Of a DNA stretch of 64,000 bases, positions 3-9,164 are shown piece by piece. The notes beneath the pieces were generated by a model. That model did no database searches and was not told the DNA's origin. It saw only the letters and a program-made list of their open reading frames with translations. How positions within the stretch are numbered: the first letter of the stretch is position 1; each line of letters starts with the position of its first letter. The position numbers and the translations under genes were made by a program. Source of the stretch: a virus (lineage: Duplodnaviria; Caudoviricetes); the IMG/VR virus record IMGVR_UViG_3300011806_000001, positions 21,152 to 85,151 of that record; one strand, given 5' to 3'.

Positions 3-794
3 GGCAGCAGCGTGCAGATGGCGGTGCTTCTGCCCCAGGAAGTGAAAGCGCTGGGCGACAACCTCAAGCAGGCCACCCCGACGCAGCAGACCACCATGCT
101 CAGCCAGCTGCGCACGGCCACCATGGACGATGGCGTCTTCAACGCGGTGATGAAGCAGCTGGCACCCGACGAGCCGGTGATGGCCTACGCCGGCATGCTG
201 GCCACCCGCGAGCGCGCGGCGGTAACGCTGCAAAAGCACTGGTTCAAGGACAACGCCACCGTGGGTGCGCGGGATGTGGCGGCGACCATGTTGGAAGGCA
301 ACCGCCTGCTGCAAGGCAAGGGCGACAACAAGTTCCCGCTGCCGCCGGAGCGGGAGTTCCGCGACATGTTCACCAGCCAGACCGGTGCGCTGTTCGCTGG
401 CCGCCCTGGTGCGGCAGACGTGGCCATGCAGGCGGTGCGCGCGTACTACACCGGCCAATCGGCCACCGAGGGCGACCACTCGGGCGAGGTGGACACCAAG
501 CGCATGAAGCAGGCGATCAACGCCTCTCTCGGCGAAGTGGTGGATATCAACGGCCGCGGCGAGGTGCTGGCGCCCTGGGGTATGGCCTCGGACGACTTCG
601 AGGACCAGGCCGAAGCGGCCTTTGTCACTGCAGCGAAGTCTGCCGGCTTGCCCGAGACGGTGGCCAGCAGCTTCAGGCAGTACGGCCTGCGGCAGAAGAG
701 CGAGCGCACGTTCTACGTGGTGCGCGGGCGCGAGTTCCTGTCGGGCAAGGACGGGCAGCCGGTCACCATCACCATCACCGGGAGCGGCCGATGA
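3..794 (+). CDS. Internal virion/DNA-ejection protein, C-terminal part (starts before the window)
   Basis: Open frame from the window edge; Ala-rich and helical; coupled (ATGA) to the next ejection gene. Confidence 0.65.
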   Translation, partial: GSSVQMAVLLPQEVKALGDNLKQATPTQQTTMLSQLRTATMDDGVFNAVMKQLAPDEPVMAYAGMLATRERAAVTLQKHWFKDNATVGARDVAATMLEGNRLLQGKGDNKFPLPPEREFRDMFTSQTGALFAGRPGAADVAMQAVRAYYTGQSATEGDHSGEVDTKRMKQAINASLGEVVDINGRGEVLAPWGMASDDFEDQAEAAFVTAAKSAGLPETVASSFRQYGLRQKSERTFYVVRGREFLSGKDGQPVTITITGSGR

Positions 795-3382
795 GCATCT
801 TCGAACTGGACGAACAGGGCCGGAAGCAGCTGGACGAACAGGCCGCGCTGCGCCCCCTGGACCTGTCCACGGTGAAGCCGGGATTCTTCGATGGCCTGGG
901 CAGCGCGGTCGGCAGCGGCATCATGCGCGGCGGCGCTCGTGCGGGTACGGCGGCATTGGTGGCCGGTGCGGTGCCAGTCATGGGCCGCGACCAGTACCTG
1001 TCGTCCTTCGCGACTGACGACGTGGTCGACTTCCTGCAGGCGAACGGCGTTGCGGCACCAGCACGCGGCGCGGTCACCACGGGGCAGGATGCCTACTTCG
1101 AGAACGTGGTTGAGGACGTTGGCCAGCGGGCTGTCGATGCCTGGACGCCAGACCCGACGCAGACCGGCACCGCCGGGCGGGTGCTGGGCGGGCTGGCCGA
1201 GATCGTGCTGCCGCTGGCTGCTGGCGGCGGCAATCCCTCGCTGCTGGCTGCCACCGAAGGCCTCGAGCGGCCGGCCAGCCTGGTGAAGCAGGGCGTAGAC
1301 GCCAAGACCGCCACGGCGGTGGGCACCGTCGGTGCTGCCGGCACGCTGCTGGGGTTCAAGCTGCCGGCCGCGTTCGGCACCACGCTGACGCAGCGGCTGG
1401 CCACCGGTGCTGCCGGCAACTTGGTGCTGGGCGCGGGTACGTCTGGCATCCAGTACGCCGCCCTCAAGAGCGCCGGCAACGATGCACAGGCGGCGATGTT
1501 CGATCCCACGGACGCGGAGGCGCGCACGGTTGACCTGCTCACCGGCCTGGCCTTCGGCGGCCTGGCACATGCGATGGCGCCACGGGTGCCGCTGGCGCAG
1601 CGAGATGCGGTACTGACCGCCCGCAACGCCGACAAGTTCCAGCGTGCCGCCACTGATGGTCTGGTGCCCAGCGAAAGCGCGAACGTCAGTGGCCAGCAGG
1701 CGCTGCAGGACGCCATGGATCAGCTCGCACGAGGCGAACAGGTCAACGTCGCCGACACCATCAAGCCCTCGGAGTTCCTGCTCCCCGTTGAAGCCACCCC
1801 CACACCGGCCGCAGTGCCGGTTTCGTCCTATTCGGCCTTCCGTCACGCGCTCGAGTCGGGTGGCCGCGCTGACGCGCGGAACCCTGAGTCCAGTGCGTTC
1901 GGCGTTGACCAGTTCACCGAGGGCACCTGGCGCCGTATCGTGGCCAAGTCGCAGCCGGCCTGGGCCGAAGGGATGACCGATGCCCAGCTGCTGGCAGCCC
2001 GAGGCAATCCGACCCGATCGGCAGAAATGGTCGCCGCGCTGGACGCGGAGAACGCCGCAGGCTTGGAAGCGGCTGGCCTGCCGGTGGATACCCACACCCT
2101 GTATGCCGCGCACCACTTCGGCATCAACAGCGGGAAGCGCTTCGCCCGATCCGATGACGCCACCCCGATCGAGCGGATCATCACCCGCGAGCAGCTGGCG
2201 GCCAATCAGTACCTGGCGGGCATGACCAAGGCAGACGTAATCGCCAACTGGAACAGCCGCGCCAAGCGCGCAGGTGTACTGCCTGACGGCGGGCCGGTGG
2301 ACACGAATCCGGCCGGGCAGGCGCTACGTCGGCGACTGGTCGACGACCCGGAGCAGATCGCTCGGGACTATGCCGCCCTGGACGAGTCCGACGGCGGGCG
2401 CATCCTCAACACCGACACCGCCCGCGAGCTGTCGCCGGAATACCTTGCCGACCGCACCCGCAGCGCGGACGTGCACGAGGCGGCCAGCGACACGGTAAAG
2501 CTGCTGTACGAGCAGAAGCTGGCCCAGCCGACGCCGGCCGGCATGGACAACACGGTCCTGTTCACCGCTGGCGGCACCGGGGCAGGCAAGACCACCGGCA
2601 TGCGCGCCATGGGCGATGCCATCGGCCGACCGGAGATCGTCTACGACACCAACATGAACACCCTGTCCTCGGCCGTGGACAAGATCGAGAAGGCGCTCGC
2701 CGCTGGCCGGAACGTGGATATCGTGTACGTCTACCGCGATCCGGTGGAGGCCCTGACCGGCGGCGCCATCCCGCGCGCGCAGCGCCAGGCCGAGAAGTTC
2801 GGGACGGGCCGCACCGTCCCTCTGGCCGAGCACGCCAAGACCCACGTGGGCGTGCGCCCCACCATGGAAGCGATCGCCGCCCGGTATGCCGATGACCCCC
2901 GCGTGCAGGTGTCGGCCGTGGACAACAGCCGCGGCAAGAACAAGCAGCAGGTGGTCGACCTTGCGACCCTTCCACGTGTAGAGGAAACTACTATCCATGA
3001 ACGCCTCCAAGCAGCCCTCGAAGAAGCCCGAGCCGGCGGCCTCGCCGAAAACCTCTACCGAGGGTTCGGCGGACCTGGACAAGGCGCACGACCAGCGCTG
3101 GCAGGAAATCGGGGCGGAAATCAGCGCCCAGGCCAAGGCCCGTCGGGCAAATCTGGCAAAGCGGGCCAAGTAAGCCCCGCAGAGTCACCCGTCACCGCCG
3201 CGCGTCAGCTGGCGGTAGAACACCCTGATGCCTCAATCGTTGTCGGCGCTGATGCCGACGGCAACGCCGTGCACCGCAGCCTGAGCGACGAGCTCGCCGA
3301 TATCGATGCGGAACTGCTGCGTGCCACCACCGACTCGACCGCCTATCAGGCCGCGGTCAACTGCCTGCTCCGGAGGGGATGA
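791..3382 (+). CDS. Multidomain ejection protein: hydrophobic N-terminus + lytic transglycosylase + zeta-toxin-like P-loop kinase
   Basis: SLT-like ALESGG..ARNPESSAFGVDQFTEGTW and LYAAHHFG; Walker A AGGTGAGKTT; zeta-like IVYDTN, YVYRDP and GRTVP. Confidence 0.8.
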   Translation: MSIFELDEQGRKQLDEQAALRPLDLSTVKPGFFDGLGSAVGSGIMRGGARAGTAALVAGAVPVMGRDQYLSSFATDDVVDFLQANGVAAPARGAVTTGQDAYFENVVEDVGQRAVDAWTPDPTQTGTAGRVLGGLAEIVLPLAAGGGNPSLLAATEGLERPASLVKQGVDAKTATAVGTVGAAGTLLGFKLPAAFGTTLTQRLATGAAGNLVLGAGTSGIQYAALKSAGNDAQAAMFDPTDAEARTVDLLTGLAFGGLAHAMAPRVPLAQRDAVLTARNADKFQRAATDGLVPSESANVSGQQALQDAMDQLARGEQVNVADTIKPSEFLLPVEATPTPAAVPVSSYSAFRHALESGGRADARNPESSAFGVDQFTEGTWRRIVAKSQPAWAEGMTDAQLLAARGNPTRSAEMVAALDAENAAGLEAAGLPVDTHTLYAAHHFGINSGKRFARSDDATPIERIITREQLAANQYLAGMTKADVIANWNSRAKRAGVLPDGGPVDTNPAGQALRRRLVDDPEQIARDYAALDESDGGRILNTDTARELSPEYLADRTRSADVHEAASDTVKLLYEQKLAQPTPAGMDNTVLFTAGGTGAGKTTGMRAMGDAIGRPEIVYDTNMNTLSSAVDKIEKALAAGRNVDIVYVYRDPVEALTGGAIPRAQRQAEKFGTGRTVPLAEHAKTHVGVRPTMEAIAARYADDPRVQVSAVDNSRGKNKQQVVDLATLPRVEETTIHERLQAALEEARAGGLAENLYRGFGGPGQGARPALAGNRGGNQRPGQGPSGKSGKAGQVSPAESPVTAARQLAVEHPDASIVVGADADGNAVHRSLSDELADIDAELLRATTDSTAYQAAVNCLLRRG

Positions 3383-5832
3383 TGAATCCTGCATGCGTTC
3401 AAGAGGTGGCCGCCGCGATCGGCCGCGAACCCACCGCCGCCGATGTGGCCCGCGTAGAAGCCGACCTTTCCCGGCACATGCGCCAACTCGCGCGCACCGA
3501 GGGCGACTGGCGGGGCCTGTCCCACGAGCAGCGCCTGCAGCGTGCCGCCGAGGCAGCCCAGGCTGACGCCGTAGCCGCCGCAGAGAAGCAGGCAGCGCGC
3601 CGGGCGTCCCGACTGGTGGCACAGGTGCGGGAAACCCAGCGCATGGGCGAGCGGGCCGCACAGCTCGCTGAGCAGGGCGCCAAGAATCCGCACCACTCTG
3701 CGCTGTTCGAGCGGATGCGCCAGGCGGACGACTACGTGTCGGGCGTGCGCAACGAGTACCTGTCCGAGCTGGTCGACGCTGTCCATGCGGTCGAGCCCCG
3801 GTTCTTCGGGCTGATGCACGATCCGCAGTCCGTGCGCGAGTTCGCGCGCGCCGTGGTCGACGGAGACACCGCCAATCCGGTGATGACCAAGGCGGCGAAC
3901 ACCTACATCGCCGCGCTCGAGGACATGCGCCAGCGGTCCAACGCGGCCGGTACCGACATTGGCCAGCTCGACTACGGCTACCTGCCGCAACCGCACGACG
4001 TCGGCCGGATAGCCCGGGCCGGCAAGCAGGCATGGGTGGATTACACCTTCCCGCGCCTGCGCCGGGAGCGCTACGTGGCCGAGGACGGCTCGCCGATGGG
4101 CGATGCGGAGGTGCTGGACGTCCTGCGCAGCGCCTACGACACCATCTCGACCGAGGGCCGCAACAAGCGCGTGCCGGGCGCGACGACCGGGCAGGGTTCC
4201 CGCGCCACCCGCTTCGACGATGCGCACCGTGTGCTGCACTTCAAGGACGCCGATGCGCATCTGGACTACCTGGCCGAGTTCGGCCGCGGCTCGATGATGG
4301 ACGCCGTGCTCGGCCACGTGGGCGGTATGGCCAAGAACATTGGCCTGATGGAAGAGTTCGGCGCCAACCCCAACTCAACGTATCGCCTGCTCAAGGACAC
4401 GGCCGAGAAGCTGGACAACGTCGCCGGCGCTCGGGCGGCCTGGCATGAGTTCGCCACCCTCGATATGACGTGGGACACGCTCACCGGCGTCACCGCGCAG
4501 CCGGTCAGCGCCAAGATGGCCCAGTTCGCGCAGGGCGTGCGCAACTTCACCACCGCGGCAAAGCTGCAGAGCGTGATGCTGTCCTCGGTCACCGACGCGC
4601 CGCTGCAGGTGCTGGTGGCGCGGTCGTCGGGTATCCCGATGGGCGAGTCGATGAAGTCGCTGTTCCGTGGGTTCGGCAAGGACGCCAAGGCACAGGCGCA
4701 TGACCTGGCCATCGGGATGGACGAGATCGCCGGCGAGATGGCGCGCTGGCACCAGGACAACCTCGCGCAGGGCTGGACCAGCAAGATCGCCAACTCGACG
4801 ATGAAGCTCACGCTGGTGGAGGCCTGGACCAACAGCTTGCGCCGCGGCTACGCGCTGACGCTGTCCCGCGCGCTCGAGCGCCAGCGCCATACGGCTTGGG
4901 GTGCGCTGGACGAGGGCAGCCGCCGCCGGCTGGATTCGGCCGGTGTCACCAAGCAGGATTGGGCCATCTGGCAGAAGGCCCAGGCGCAGGACGGCATGCT
5001 CACCAAGGACGGGATCCGGGCCGTGGACGCCAACGATGCCGATATCAATCGCGCGACGGCTCGCCTGCTGGGCTATCTGGACAGCGAGGCCCGCACCGCG
5101 ATCCTGGCCCCCGACCTGACCACCCGGGCCAGCCTGCAGCAGGGCACCAAGTCCGGCACGGTCGGCGGCGAGGCGCTGCGATCGCTGATGCTGTTCAAGT
5201 CCTTCCCCATGGCGATCGTCGACAAGCACCTGCGCCGGCTGCGCAACATCCCGACCACGCAGGGCAAGGTGGCCTACAGCGCGGCGATGCTGACCAGCCT
5301 GCAGCTGTTCGGTGCCGTGGCCCTGCAGCTGAAAGACCTGCGCGACGGTAAAGACCCGCGCGACATGACGGATAGCAAGTTCTGGCTGGCTGCGGCTGCG
5401 CAGGGCGGTGGCATGGGCATCTTCGGCGACATTCTCTACACCGGCATGGGCGGCGAAGCGCGCGGTGGCCAGTCTAACTGGACCTCGCTGCTCGGCCCTG
5501 TCTTCGGCACCGTGATGGATGGATTCAACATCGCGCGCAAGGGTGCGGGCTGGGCGATCGCCGAAGAGGGCAAGGCCGATGAAGCGCGGGCCAGCGTGGG
5601 CGCCGAGGCGCTGCGGTTTGCCAAGGGGAACACCCCCTTCATCAACCTGTGGTATCTGCGCGGCGCCACCGACCACATGGTGTTCCACGACCTGCAGGAG
5701 CAGCTGAGTCCGGGTTACCTGCGGCGGATGCGCCGGCGCGCGCAGAAGGAATGGAACCAGGACTACTGGTGGGAGCCGGGCGAGGCGGTGCCCGACCGAG
5801 CACCCAACATCGCAGCAGCGGCAGGAGAGTGA
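3379..5832 (+). CDS. Large internal virion/DNA-ejection protein (817 aa)
   Basis: Size, helical composition and position as last of the ejection cluster in podovirus gene order. Confidence 0.7.
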   Translation: MMNPACVQEVAAAIGREPTAADVARVEADLSRHMRQLARTEGDWRGLSHEQRLQRAAEAAQADAVAAAEKQAARRASRLVAQVRETQRMGERAAQLAEQGAKNPHHSALFERMRQADDYVSGVRNEYLSELVDAVHAVEPRFFGLMHDPQSVREFARAVVDGDTANPVMTKAANTYIAALEDMRQRSNAAGTDIGQLDYGYLPQPHDVGRIARAGKQAWVDYTFPRLRRERYVAEDGSPMGDAEVLDVLRSAYDTISTEGRNKRVPGATTGQGSRATRFDDAHRVLHFKDADAHLDYLAEFGRGSMMDAVLGHVGGMAKNIGLMEEFGANPNSTYRLLKDTAEKLDNVAGARAAWHEFATLDMTWDTLTGVTAQPVSAKMAQFAQGVRNFTTAAKLQSVMLSSVTDAPLQVLVARSSGIPMGESMKSLFRGFGKDAKAQAHDLAIGMDEIAGEMARWHQDNLAQGWTSKIANSTMKLTLVEAWTNSLRRGYALTLSRALERQRHTAWGALDEGSRRRLDSAGVTKQDWAIWQKAQAQDGMLTKDGIRAVDANDADINRATARLLGYLDSEARTAILAPDLTTRASLQQGTKSGTVGGEALRSLMLFKSFPMAIVDKHLRRLRNIPTTQGKVAYSAAMLTSLQLFGAVALQLKDLRDGKDPRDMTDSKFWLAAAAQGGGMGIFGDILYTGMGGEARGGQSNWTSLLGPVFGTVMDGFNIARKGAGWAIAEEGKADEARASVGAEALRFAKGNTPFINLWYLRGATDHMVFHDLQEQLSPGYLRRMRRRAQKEWNQDYWWEPGEAVPDRAPNIAAAAGE

Positions 5833-5833
5833 C

Positions 5834-6229
5834 ATGCGCGAAGACCAATACGTGCGGATGCAGGCCCTGAGCGAGAAGCTGGCCGAGGCCTTTATCGAGG
5901 AAGCCGACCCGGCCACCTGGAGTGGCGCCGGCAAGGCGCCCAACGAGATGGACAAGACCGAGCGCGGCGACCGCTACTGGTGCAAGCGCAACGCGGCGGC
6001 CACTGGCGGGCTGCTACTGCGCGTCGGCTCGCTGGTGTCCATGATCCAGCGCGACAGCGGCGGGAATGGCGGGGCCGGAGAAGTCACCCCCGAGGGCGAC
6101 GAAACCGGCGAAGGGCTGCTGGAGGACGAGGTGACCGCGGCCGAGAAGGAAGGTGCGAAGCTGCTGGACCAGGTGCTGAAGCAGCAGCGCCGCACGGCTG
6201 AGGTGGCGAAACTCCATGGCAAGCCGTGA
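5834..6229 (+). CDS. Terminase small subunit (putative)
   Basis: 131-aa acidic protein immediately upstream of and overlapping terL. Confidence 0.6.
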   Translation: MREDQYVRMQALSEKLAEAFIEEADPATWSGAGKAPNEMDKTERGDRYWCKRNAAATGGLLLRVGSLVSMIQRDSGGNGGAGEVTPEGDETGEGLLEDEVTAAEKEGAKLLDQVLKQQRRTAEVAKLHGKP

Positions 6230-7862
6230 CGTATCGTTCCTGACGTTCTTCATGATGTGGGCACGGCTCCAGGGGTGGACCGTGCCCCTGCTGCATGTGC
6301 GCATCTGCGTGTGGCTGGAAACCTGCGCCGACCCCGAGCGGGTGCTGATGGTGTTCCGAGGCGCGGCAAAGTCGACCATCTACGCCGTGTACAAGGCCTG
6401 GCGGCTGTACCGGAACCGAGCCCATCGATCGCTGGTGTGGTCGGCGGACAACGACACGGCCGGCATGCTCACGGCCGACACCATCAACGTGCTGCGCAAC
6501 CACCCGCTGTGCATCGGCATGCTGCCGCGCAAGCCCGGCGCCAAGCGGTTCTCTGTGCTGGGATCGCGGGACGCACGTAACGCCAGCATGCGCGCGGTGG
6601 GCGTGACCTCGAATGCCACCGGCGCCCGCGCCGACGATGTGGACTTCGACGATATCGAGGTGCCCGGCAACATCGAGACGCCCGAAGCCAGGCTGAAACT
6701 GCGGCAGCGCATCAGCGAGTCAACCCACATTGCCGTGCCAGGCGCGCAGAAGACGTTCATCGGCACGCCGCACACCCACGACAGCATCTACCCCGAGCGC
6801 ATCGCGGCCGGCGCGGCCACGCTGATCATCCCGCTGTTCGCCCACGCGACCAGGTACAAGCAGACCGCCAGCCGGACCCGGTACCCAATCAAGTTCGAGC
6901 CGGACGACGACGGGCTGTATGTGATCGTCGGTATCCACAAGTTCGCGCGCGTGCTGGAAGAGGGCACCGACTACCGCGTCGAAGCCGGGGAGATCGTGTT
7001 CTCCAAGCCGCCCGGTGCCGTGCTGGATATCTACAGCGGCTGCGCCTGGCCCGAGCGGTTCAACCGAAACGAAATCGGGATTCGCCGCAAGGAAACCCGC
7101 ACCCTCAACGCCTGGGACAGCCAGTACATGCTCGAAGCCAAGCCCATCGAAGAGATCCGGCTGGACCCGGAGAAGATCGTCCCCTACGACGTGGAGGCCA
7201 CGATCCGGAAGGCCAACGGCGCTGTGGCCATGTTCCTGGGCGGCGTGCAGATCGCCATGGCTGCGGTGCGATGGGATCCCGCCAGCGGCAAACTCAACTC
7301 CGACGTGTCTGCTGTGGCGGTGGTGCTGCAGGATCTACTGGGCCGGCGATACCTGCACCGCATGGTGCAGCTGACCGGGGAGCTGGCCGAGTTCGATGAC
7401 AGCGGAAAGCGCGTCATCGGTGGCCAGGTCTGGCAGCTGTGCGACCTGGTGGAAGAGCTGAACCTGCCGCGCATCGTCGTGGAAACCAACGGCATCGGCA
7501 CGTTCGCGCCTGCGGTGCTGAAAGCCGCACTCAAGCAGCGGCGGCTGCTCGGTGTCGGCGTCGGCGTGGAACAGGCGGTGGCCAACAAAAGCCGCCGCAT
7601 CCTCGAGGCGTGGGAACCGCTGCTGACCAGCCACGGCCAGCTGTGGGCGCACATGAGCGTGCTGCGCGGCCCGCTATGGGATCAGATGAAAGACTGGATC
7701 CCGACCGCTCCCAACCAGAAGGACGACTACCTCGATGCCGGCGCGGGCGCGCTGAGCGATACGCCTGAACGGATCATCCAAATAGTCGGGAACCCGAACG
7801 CCTCGCCCCGCGACGATTGGCGCCACAGCGCGGGGGAGCACGAGGTCGTATTCGAGCGCTGA
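6216..7862 (+). CDS. terL: Terminase large subunit
   Basis: Walker A VFRGAAKST, Walker B VDFDDIE, FIGTP motif III, WPERF, RNase H-like WDPA...D and KDDYLDA. Confidence 0.9.
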   Translation: MASRDVSFLTFFMMWARLQGWTVPLLHVRICVWLETCADPERVLMVFRGAAKSTIYAVYKAWRLYRNRAHRSLVWSADNDTAGMLTADTINVLRNHPLCIGMLPRKPGAKRFSVLGSRDARNASMRAVGVTSNATGARADDVDFDDIEVPGNIETPEARLKLRQRISESTHIAVPGAQKTFIGTPHTHDSIYPERIAAGAATLIIPLFAHATRYKQTASRTRYPIKFEPDDDGLYVIVGIHKFARVLEEGTDYRVEAGEIVFSKPPGAVLDIYSGCAWPERFNRNEIGIRRKETRTLNAWDSQYMLEAKPIEEIRLDPEKIVPYDVEATIRKANGAVAMFLGGVQIAMAAVRWDPASGKLNSDVSAVAVVLQDLLGRRYLHRMVQLTGELAEFDDSGKRVIGGQVWQLCDLVEELNLPRIVVETNGIGTFAPAVLKAALKQRRLLGVGVGVEQAVANKSRRILEAWEPLLTSHGQLWAHMSVLRGPLWDQMKDWIPTAPNQKDDYLDAGAGALSDTPERIIQIVGNPNASPRDDWRHSAGEHEVVFER

Positions 7863-7885
7863 ACGCCAACCCGTTCGGAGCATCG

Positions 7886-8134
7886 ATGAAAGAGCAGATC
7901 ACCAAGGACCTGGCCGAGTCAGCCGCCAAGATTGCCCCGGCGGCTGGCGTGACGGTCGGGACGTACACGCCGGGCTACACGCTCAGCGATGTGGCAGTTA
8001 TCTGCACCATCCTGTTCACCCTGATCCAGACCTTCACGGTGGTGGTGAAGAACTGGGGGGACTGGAGCGCCTGGTGGTCCGCCCGCTGGGCCACCGCGCG
8101 CCGCTTCGCTGCCTGGGTGCGCCGCCGTGGCTGA
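7886..8134 (+). CDS. Holin (pinholin-like)
   Basis: 82 aa with a TM helix and basic C-terminus, directly upstream of the endolysin. Confidence 0.65.
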   Translation: MKEQITKDLAESAAKIAPAAGVTVGTYTPGYTLSDVAVICTILFTLIQTFTVVVKNWGDWSAWWSARWATARRFAAWVRRRG

Positions 8135-8666
8135 GGACACTTCCAAGGGCAAGAAGGTGGGCTTCGCTGCCGCGCCGATCGCGCTGGTGCTGGCCCTGGT
8201 CGCCGCCCTCGGCCAGAACGATTCCGCGCACGAGGGCCGCAAGTTCGTCCCCTACCGTGACTCGGCCGGTATCTGGACCGTCTGCGCCGGCATCACCGGT
8301 AAGGCCGTGGTGCCCGGCAAGCGCTACAGCGTGCCAGAGTGCCACCAGCTGGAAACCAGCTACGTGCAGTCGATGCTGCAGAACATGGGCCGCTGCGTGC
8401 GCGGCGAGTACCAGTTCCACGAGATCAAGGCCTGGGGCCACTTCGCCTACAACGTGGGCAACACCGCCTTCTGCAACAGCACCGCGGCCAAGCGCCTTAA
8501 CGCGGGCGAGCGTACCGCGGCGTGCGACGAGATGTGGAAGTGGCGATTCGTGACCATCGATGGGGTCAAGCGCGATTGCGCGCTGCCCCAATGGCGCTCG
8601 AAGTGCGGCGGCATCATCGACCGCCGGCAGTGGGAAATGGCTACCTGCAGAGGGACGCTCCAATGA
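8127..8666 (+). CDS. SAR endolysin (GH24 lysozyme)
   Basis: Ala-rich N-terminal hydrophobic segment followed by the E-x8-D-x5-T triad (HEGRKFVPYRDSAGIWTVCAG). Confidence 0.85.
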   Translation: MAEDTSKGKKVGFAAAPIALVLALVAALGQNDSAHEGRKFVPYRDSAGIWTVCAGITGKAVVPGKRYSVPECHQLETSYVQSMLQNMGRCVRGEYQFHEIKAWGHFAYNVGNTAFCNSTAAKRLNAGERTAACDEMWKWRFVTIDGVKRDCALPQWRSKCGGIIDRRQWEMATCRGTLQ

Positions 8667-9049
8667 TAGTGCTGACCCCGAAACAGTCCGTCCAGCTTGC
8701 ACTGGTGGTGGTGCTGGCCTCGATCGGGGGCTGCTACTACTTCAAAGGCCGCGACGATGCGTCGACGGCCGCTCAGAACGCCACCCTCCGGGCCGAAGCC
8801 CGGGCCACCGCAGACAGCGTCCAGATCAGCAGCGCTACCGCTGCTGCGATCGACGTGGAATCCCACGACACCCGTACACGCACCGCTGCCGCGGTGGAGG
8901 CCATCAATGCGACTCCTGCTCACTCTGATCCTGCTGCTACTGCTGACGTCCTGCGCCTGGCTCGGGAAGCGCACGACCGCGCGATACGTGCCGCCTGCAG
9001 GGTGCAGCGAACGAGCGATTGCCCTGCGGCCGCCGGCTCCGCCGAATGA
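8663..9049 (+). CDS. i-spanin (Rz-like)
   Basis: N-terminal TM helix then Ala-rich helix; follows the endolysin. Confidence 0.75.
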   Translation: MIVLTPKQSVQLALVVVLASIGGCYYFKGRDDASTAAQNATLRAEARATADSVQISSATAAAIDVESHDTRTRTAAAVEAINATPAHSDPAATADVLRLAREAHDRAIRAACRVQRTSDCPAAAGSAE

Positions 9050-9164
9050 CCGTGATTGGGTGAAGTGGTCTGCGGCCTACGTGGGTGCCGCCGGCGCCTA
9101 CGAGGACAGCGAGAACAAGCGCGCGGCCACCGCCGACTGCCTGGACCAGCACCGGGGGAAATAG
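8907..9164 (+). CDS. o-spanin (Rz1-like lipoprotein)
   Basis: MRLLLTLILLLLLTSC lipobox; overlaps the i-spanin in another frame. Confidence 0.8.
   Translation: MRLLLTLILLLLLTSCAWLGKRTTARYVPPAGCSERAIALRPPAPPNDRDWVKWSAAYVGAAGAYEDSENKRAATADCLDQHRGK

Follow-up and report, generated by a model that had tools for sequence, protein, structure and literature searches.

The locus examined here raises the question of what a kinase related to the zeta toxins is doing in a gene that lies among the structural genes of a phage. The window, a stretch of DNA of 64,000 nucleotides (nt), corresponds to bases 21152-85151 of an 85-kb viral record (IMG/VR IMGVR_UViG_3300011806_000001). Near its start, a single open reading frame (ORF) on the plus strand, located at positions 791-3382, is translated into a protein of 863 amino acids (aa), named P0001 hereafter. 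A preliminary description, produced from the sequence alone, had seen in this gene a podovirus ejection protein that combines a lytic transglycosylase domain of the SLT type with a kinase whose motifs are rearranged. The reading favored here, with a probability of roughly 0.6, is that P0001 is an internal virion protein in which the SLT domain cuts the cell wall, while the injected kinase phosphorylates a UDP-activated wall-precursor sugar early in infection. The kinase itself is a real and largely anticipated kind of phage enzyme, its injection being presumed.

Family and fold of the kinase domain

The kinase domain is recognized by the Pfam model Zeta_toxin (PF06414) with 36.4 bits, the cut-off being 22.3 (E = 4.8e-9). 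The aligned part is restricted to model positions 95-185 (aa 613-708), in the second half of the model, a limitation that a swap of the first blocks of the domain would explain. The segment bearing Asp542 is indeed located N-terminal to the Walker A motif, 52 residues ahead of the P-loop, and the positions reported in the preliminary description for these two motifs are correct (NTDT at aa 540, nt 2408; GGTGAGKT at aa 594, nt 2570); the other motifs that it listed could be placed as well (YDTN at aa 618 and GRTVP at aa 673), and ESGG, with the catalytic Glu355 of the SLT domain, stands at aa 355. A zeta toxin in which two blocks of the sequence have changed places has been described in Neisseria gonorrhoeae under the name of ng_zeta1, with Asp56 as its catalytic aspartate (Rocker et al. 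2018, PMC5923241). Residues 517-649 of P0001 are collinear with residues 31-163 of the ng_zeta1 chain in a HMMER comparison, with an E-value of 3.5e-4 that falls to 3.3e-8 when a profile of homologs is used in place of the single sequence. In this alignment, Asp56 falls opposite Asp542 and the P-loop containing Lys115 opposite the P-loop containing Lys600.

The same relationship is found at the structural level. An AlphaFold2 model of aa 500-745, with a predicted local distance difference test (pLDDT) of 96, was compared by Foldseek with known structures. The best matches are the ng_zeta1 entries (6EPH, E = 1.4e-11, template modeling score 0.74), followed by zeta, AvrRxo1 and PezT, the three references proposed for this comparison in the preliminary description. 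An alignment with 6EPH by VIA-align yields a Z-score of 24.0 and a root-mean-square deviation of 2.6 Å over 231 residues, spanning positions 1-246 of the model and 7-252 of the chain, whereas AvrRxo1, zeta and PezT reach 10.4-11.6 only with the same program (11.6 for AvrRxo1). These classic enzymes (1GVN, 3Q8X and 2P5T for zeta/PezT, 4Z8T for AvrRxo1) share with P0001 the P-loop kinase superfamily, the Walker A lysine and the aspartate base, but their Walker A motif precedes the Asp segment. A generic AAA ATPase, named beforehand as a counter-case, can be rejected together with the nucleotide kinases, since polynucleotide, adenylate and other unrelated kinases give Z-scores of at most 9.8 as compared to 24.0 for ng_zeta1.

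As judged from the alignments and the predicted model, the kinase domain is a member of the zeta-toxin family, of the block-swapped ng_zeta1 subtype. Three features of the family are found, namely the Pfam score, the Walker A lysine with the aspartate, and a fold of the zeta/PezT/AvrRxo1 type; the subtype is indicated by the strand and helix block of the aspartate, which stands before the Walker A motif and is collinear with 6EPH. The "permuted zeta fold" announced in the preliminary description is therefore only partly retained: the motif order is real, but the topology is not new because the domain is collinear with ng_zeta1, the block swap of which is published and solved (6EPG, 6EPH and 6EPI; PMC5923241). 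The hypothesis of a newly permuted fold was accordingly rejected. The resemblance between the two proteins comprises the kinase fold, the block-swapped order, the collinearity over chain residues 7-252 and both catalytic residues. The OB-fold domain located C-terminal to the kinase of ng_zeta1 is in contrast not matched: the structural alignment stops at chain residue 252, where P0001 displays a low-complexity linker and a 48-aa tail instead. In addition, ng_zeta1 stands alone in a chromosomal toxin-antitoxin pair, whereas P0001 is devoid of any epsilon-type antitoxin gene.

The conservation of the domain was evaluated on a set of 254 homologous domains that are 31-100% identical. Asp542, Gly594, Gly595, Gly597, Gly599, Lys600, Arg674, His685 and Asn712 are invariant in all 254, in agreement with the claim that the catalytic aspartate had been kept; Arg545, Glu546, His562, Asp619, Arg662 and Asp711 are retained in more than 98%. 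The kinase is predicted to be a working enzyme because the catalytic residues do not vary down to 31% identity, and this pattern argues for purifying selection on an active protein. The same invariance stands against the view that the domain is an inactive relic. This view appears highly improbable, and so does that of a toxin belonging to a prophage toxin-antitoxin or abortive-infection module. The latter finds an argument in the names given to the domain by Pfam and NCBI, both "zeta toxin". A toxin-antitoxin module was nevertheless rejected, as an antitoxin gene has no room next to a gene flanked on both sides by large structural genes that overlap it by ATGA, and as the kinase is internal to an 863-aa protein of the structural module.

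The SLT-like domain was found at the place where it had been noticed. Residues 352-493 match phrog_4067, annotated "transglycosylase" (E = 2.9e-16), and aa 353-454 can be aligned with gp144 of phage phiKZ (3BKH/9XPS). Glu355 faces in this alignment residue 115 of the gp144 chain, which is presumably its catalytic glutamate.

Virion setting, carrier ends and exchangeable cargo

The gene order was read beyond the window, upstream as well as downstream. The source of P0001 is a temperate podovirus prophage combining tail-tube genes of the T7 type with early genes of the lambdoid type, and the nearest named relatives of the protein belong to Stenotrophomonas. The upstream early genes encode a replication initiator, a DnaB helicase, NinB and a Holliday-junction resolvase. 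They are followed by the genes for the portal, the scaffold, the capsid, tail tubular protein A and tail tubular protein B (phrog_376, with a weaker second match to phrog_457, the family of T7 gp12), then by those of a 148-aa GNAT protein, a 160-aa "internal virion protein" (phrog_418), a 692-aa protein (phrog_992) and P0001. An 817-aa "virion structural protein" (phrog_684), a 131-aa protein and the large terminase come next. The genes from the portal through the large terminase form one co-oriented run, and the lysis genes, two tail-fiber genes and an integrase at the end of the prophage are found 3' of the terminase. The tail-tube and internal-virion genes revealed upstream of the window bear out the "ejection cluster" of the preliminary description, and the fusion of the kinase to an SLT domain within this cluster is established by the domain matches and by synteny. 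Yersinia phage YeP5 shows the same gene order, as do 17-19 of the 80 IMG/VR contigs compared, and the gene of the 817-aa protein keeps its position in 17 of these 80 related contigs.

The gene model itself is well founded. A ribosome-binding site, GGGAG, is located 6 nt 5' of the start codon, and ATGA overlaps between start and stop codons tie P0001 to both adjoining genes. The start codon can be considered as sound because the homologs share the same N-terminus, MSIF(E/D)LD. The "hydrophobic N-terminus" reported for the protein is weakly so: two segments rich in glycine and alanine reach a Kyte-Doolittle mean of 1.25-1.27 over 19 residues, without any clear transmembrane helix.

Like gp16 of T7, P0001 is encoded among internal-virion genes on the 3' side of those for the tail tubular proteins, and contains a domain of the SLT type that is presumed to act on peptidoglycan during ejection. 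This domain is however N-terminal in gp16 and internal in P0001, to which a kinase is added, and the families matched by P0001 (phrog_1145, 11561, 14422 and 4067) include none of those of gp16 (phrog_342 and others). The order of the terminase and fiber genes differs from T7 as well, and lambdoid-type early genes and an integrase are present here. Since gp13-gp16 of T7 belong to other PHROGs than the core proteins of this locus and a direct homology to the T7 ejectosome is not demonstrable, the designation of P0001 as an ejection protein is drawn from synteny and PHROG labels. A role of the SLT domain as the lysis enzyme of the phage was rejected because this phage has its own holin and endolysin and apparent spanin genes in a separate cassette.

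The organization of P0001 becomes clearer when its relatives are considered. The N-terminal domain, hereafter N-domain, matches phrog_1145 (E = 2.2e-34) and is predicted by AlphaFold2 to be entirely helical, with 14 helices and a pLDDT of 82. In BFVD, it is matched by proteins of podoviruses that bear the annotation "large polyvalent protein associated" (LPD) or that of DdrB/ParB domains. A search with the N-domain retrieved 99 proteins, the middle parts of which differ: about half contain Zeta_toxin, and SLT, GH108, ddrB-ParB, ART-PolyVal, GGDEF or no recognizable cargo are found as well. Other cargo or associated domains among the relatives are GNAT, LPD22 and InPase, and the larger kinase relatives carry LPD22, GNAT and ddrB-ParB. 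Relatives with a zeta domain and no SLT domain are frequent (95 against 43 in the collected set). The full-length relatives, which originate mostly from Stenotrophomonas and other Xanthomonadales, are for the most part named "zeta toxin family protein" by NCBI where a name is given. Individual proteins illustrate the exchange of the central part. P0244 (793 aa, S. maltophilia) is 51% identical to P0001 over aa 1-496, that is, the N-domain and the SLT domain (51% also for the SLT region taken separately), and continues with about 270 aa of unrelated cargo before the same tail. P0054 contains a ddrB-ParB domain in addition and lacks the lysozyme domain, and a 430-aa protein of YeP5 consists of the N-domain and the tail, with no cargo at all. 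The C-terminal tail is kept in P0054, P0034, P0244 and the YeP5 protein. It ends in P0001 with AAVNCLLRRG and obeys the motif A-A-[VI]-x-C-x-[LM]-R, in which the cysteine column is conserved at 90% or more; it may represent an assembly or packaging signal, or else a disulfide or metal-binding site. Because these relatives keep both ends and differ in the part between them, the N-domain and the Cys-bearing tail appear to form a carrier, and the two enzymatic domains, SLT and kinase, to be exchangeable cargo.

Two alternative occupants of the cargo slot deserve a description of their own. In P0244 and its relatives P0239-P0249, the kinase is replaced by some 270 aa (aa ~497-760), for which Pfam gave no match and the ESM Atlas no usable one. 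In P0298 (820 aa, Methylibium sp.), which shares the same N-terminal carrier domain with 39% identity, the slot is filled by a GGDEF diguanylate-cyclase domain (aa 547-695, 27.8 bits in Pfam). Delivery of a cyclic-dinucleotide synthase by an ejection protein of a phage is therefore conceivable.

Several unrelated enzymatic domains shuffled in a combinatorial manner among relatives are the hallmark of the "polyvalent proteins" (Iyer, Burroughs, Anand, de Souza and Aravind 2017, PMC5512222), and P0001 belongs to this class. Zeta-toxin-like kinases and lysozyme or transglycosylase domains are both listed there as cargo, the zeta-like kinases being placed in proteins of conjugative elements and in phage MuF fusions and proposed to weaken the wall and thereby to help DNA entry. 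P0001 resembles these proteins by its large size and its multiple enzymes, by the signature domains LPD22, ddrB-ParB and ART-PolyVal found in its relatives, and by a journey with the invading DNA, which is thought to occur for polyvalent proteins and is presumed for P0001. It differs from them by its carrier, a distinct helical N-domain with a tail encoded in a podovirus internal-virion cluster, and by a kinase of the ng_zeta1 subtype.

Proposed delivery, timing and substrate of the kinase

The favored reading can be outlined as follows. The N-domain and the Cys-containing tail would presumably build P0001 into the capsid core, and the protein would be packaged, then ejected with the phage DNA. 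The SLT domain, by means of Glu355, would open the peptidoglycan while the ejection channel crosses the periplasm, in the manner of T7 gp16. The kinase part would have to reach the cytoplasm with the DNA, ATP and UDP-sugars being available nowhere else. With regard to substrates, ng_zeta1 phosphorylates the 4'-OH of UDP-N-acetylmuramic acid (UDP-MurNAc or UNAM) and of UDP-N-acetylglucosamine (UDP-GlcNAc), and zeta and PezT phosphorylate UDP-GlcNAc at its 3'-OH (PMC5923241). The kinase of P0001 might use ATP on UDP-MurNAc or UDP-GlcNAc as ng_zeta1 does, and the benefit to the phage would be a peptidoglycan synthesis that is drained or poisoned at the very beginning of the infection.

Several points weigh against this reading. 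The identity with ng_zeta1 is about 20% only, and the core proteins of the locus have no detectable sequence homology to gp14, gp15 or gp16 of T7. When the fold of the N-domain model was compared with the PDB, nothing reached E <= 0.001, and the top hits were unrelated membrane or helical proteins with an E-value around 1. Only a few copies of P0001 per virion would enter the cell, and a single deposited phage genome, itself a metagenomic assembly, contains the kinase domain. The substrate pocket and the stand-alone homologs described below belong to the same side of the balance.

The pocket raises the issue of the substrate. Lys59 and Asn75 of ng_zeta1 bind the carboxyethyl group of UDP-MurNAc (PMC5923241). 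These two UNAM contacts are replaced in P0001 by Arg545 and Ser558, found respectively in 252 and 245 of the 254 homologous domains, and the substrate of P0001 may therefore be another one than that of ng_zeta1. On this basis, a protein built and delivered in the same way could be directed against another small molecule, such as nicotinamide adenine dinucleotide (NAD), its nicotinic acid counterpart (NAAD) or a nucleotide immune signal, and could act as a counter-defense or host-takeover effector. This alternative, possible although clearly less probable than a wall precursor, is consistent with the match to AvrRxo1, a member of the same fold family at Z 11.6. NAD and NAAD are the substrates of AvrRxo1. 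The other cargo of the same slot (ART-PolyVal, GGDEF and ddrB-ParB) acts on proteins, nucleotides and DNA, not on the wall, and many relatives have a zeta domain without any SLT domain, as counted above. The fold is however far closer to the UDP-sugar kinase ng_zeta1 than to AvrRxo1 (Z 24.0 versus 11.6), and the change from lysine to arginine at position 545 is conservative. An even bolder extension, which should be seen as speculative, is that some T7-tailed podoviruses possess a dedicated scaffold, made of the helical N-domain and the Cys-bearing tail on either side of a slot, that injects hot-swappable host-manipulating enzymes (zeta kinase, ADP-ribosyltransferase, GGDEF cyclase or a ParB-like domain) prior to gene expression. 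The kinase, with its pocket unlike that of ng_zeta1, would then serve as a counter-defense by striking a target other than a wall precursor, for instance NAD or an immune signal of nucleotide nature.

The distribution of the domain bears on its timing. At E <= 1e-3, the kinase domain was detected in 2,167 cluster representatives (50% identity), 573 of which remain at E <= 1e-30, in proteins ranging from 300 to 4,500 aa. It is present in 303 IMG/VR contigs, and 13 plasmids, of sphingomonad origin in nearly every case, carry it as well. Among the 80 best IMG/VR loci of these 303 contigs, which were used for the comparison of loci, about 60 (L019-L084 and L018) contain a stand-alone kinase gene of 275-370 aa, the product of which is 50-57% identical to the domain of P0001. 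In L018, a lambdoid/P22-like contig and the only stand-alone locus that was annotated, the kinase gene (7884-8795, plus strand) is located between the nin region and the terminase, following ninB and a regulator gene and preceding the small terminase. Stand-alone kinases are expressed from lambdoid phage genomes, and the enzyme is therefore not tied to virion delivery; it can serve a phage inside the infected cell without injection.

These genes, which lie among non-structural genes and whose products must act after their expression, lend weight to a late action of the kinase in the producing cell. The precursor supply would be shut down there, ahead of packaging or independently of it, as a growth stop or a lysis aid. 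That the kinase is fused to a virion protein would then be fortuitous, or would serve to make its expression coincide with that of the late genes. Single-gene lysis proteins blocking MurA or MraY constitute an established precedent for such a strategy. A FastTree phylogeny of the 254 domains points in the same direction, with at least 35 changes of architecture class as compared to about 89 for shuffled labels, a count inflated to an uncertain degree by truncated ORFs and by N-domains missed in the search. Conversely, this phage already owns a lysis cassette with holin, endolysin and apparent spanin genes, its kinase is flanked by a conserved N-domain and tail and occupies a place where other cargo of the effector type is found, and the gene is embedded in the internal-virion genes and translationally coupled to them. 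A predominantly late role consequently appears unlikely for P0001, for which the early action of an injected kinase on a wall precursor is preferred.

A distant homolog was also noticed in MW202577.1 (L003:7099-9735), the metagenomic assembly mentioned above as the single deposited phage genome with the domain. Its product, UOF78922.1 (878 aa), has a C-terminal zeta-type kinase that is 30% identical to that of P0001, and its gene sits among large structural-looking genes. It is labeled "thymidylate kinase", probably wrongly.

Features of the locus and significance

The coordinates of the features found in the first part of the window are given in Table 1. The 817-aa neighbor returned nothing useful from a sequence search of the PDB, and nothing meaningful was obtained from NCBIfam for P0001 and its neighbors. 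The 131-aa ORF could encode the small terminase subunit, judging by its position after the gene of the 817-aa protein and before that of the large terminase. The gene of the 148-aa GNAT acetyltransferase is found outside the window, some 1.8 kb ahead of its first position (L002:18934-19380, plus strand), between tail tubular protein B and the internal-virion genes. Its product matches Acetyltransf_7 in Pfam (E = 1.8e-10) and phrog_1249, and it occupies the position of gene 13 in T7; an ORF of equal size is found at the same place in YeP5. This protein may be another packaged enzyme.

Table 1. Position of P0001, its domains and its neighbors in the window
Feature	Coordinates	Strand	Evidence or remarks
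Gene of the 692-aa virion protein, 3' end	3..794	+	phrog_992; translationally coupled to P0001
P0001, predicted internal-virion/ejection protein with two enzymatic cargo domains	791..3382	+	ORF, translation, ribosome-binding site, ATGA overlaps, synteny
N-terminal carrier domain, aa 1-335, all-helical, Gly/Ala-rich	791..1795	+	phrog_1145, AlphaFold2 model
SLT-type lytic transglycosylase domain, aa 346-495	1826..2275	+	phrog_4067, phiKZ gp144; Glu355 codon at 1853-1855
ng_zeta1-type zeta kinase domain, aa 500-745	2288..3025	+	Pfam PF06414, AlphaFold2, Foldseek, VIA-align
Asp542 codon, predicted catalytic base, 5' of Walker A	2414..2416	+	Alignment with ng_zeta1 Asp56; 254/254 homologous domains
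Walker A P-loop GGTGAGKTT, aa 594-602	2570..2596	+	ng_zeta1 P-loop with Lys115; Lys600 codon at 2588-2590
Low-complexity Gly/Pro/Gln/Ser linker, aa 746-800	3026..3190	+	58% P+G+Q+S+N
Conserved C-terminal tail, aa 816-863, near-invariant Cys858	3236..3379	+	Kept in relatives with differing cargo
Gene of the 817-aa virion structural protein	3379..5832	+	phrog_684, E = 1e-206; translationally coupled to P0001
131-aa ORF	5834-6229	+	phrog_9277, function not annotated; no Pfam match
Lysis cassette of the podovirus	7817-9164	+	Holin, endolysin and apparent spanin genes
Holin	7817-8134	+	phrog_920
Endolysin, hydrophobic N-terminus resembling a signal anchor	8127-8666	+	phrog_7
i-spanin-like ORF	8522-9049	+	By eye only
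ORF embedded in another frame, product with lipobox-like LLLTSC	8697-9164	+	By eye only

The first impression of novelty given by this locus has to be corrected, as the "permutation" is that of a known subtype and the close relatives of P0001 are publicly named "zeta toxin family protein". Both halves of the idea are already published, the swapped topology in PMC5923241 and the zeta-like kinases as polyvalent cargo in PMC5512222. A search of the literature found no paper tying zeta kinases to internal-virion or ejection proteins, and no experimental work on this kinase domain. Enzymes injected with the phage DNA act before the expression of phage genes, and few of them are characterized. The kinase domain described here is abundant and highly conserved, and is found fused to ejection proteins as well as in the form of a stand-alone phage gene. 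As its solved homolog ng_zeta1 provides hypotheses for both substrates and mutants, the role of the kinase and the concept of a cargo slot can be tested by ordinary assays.

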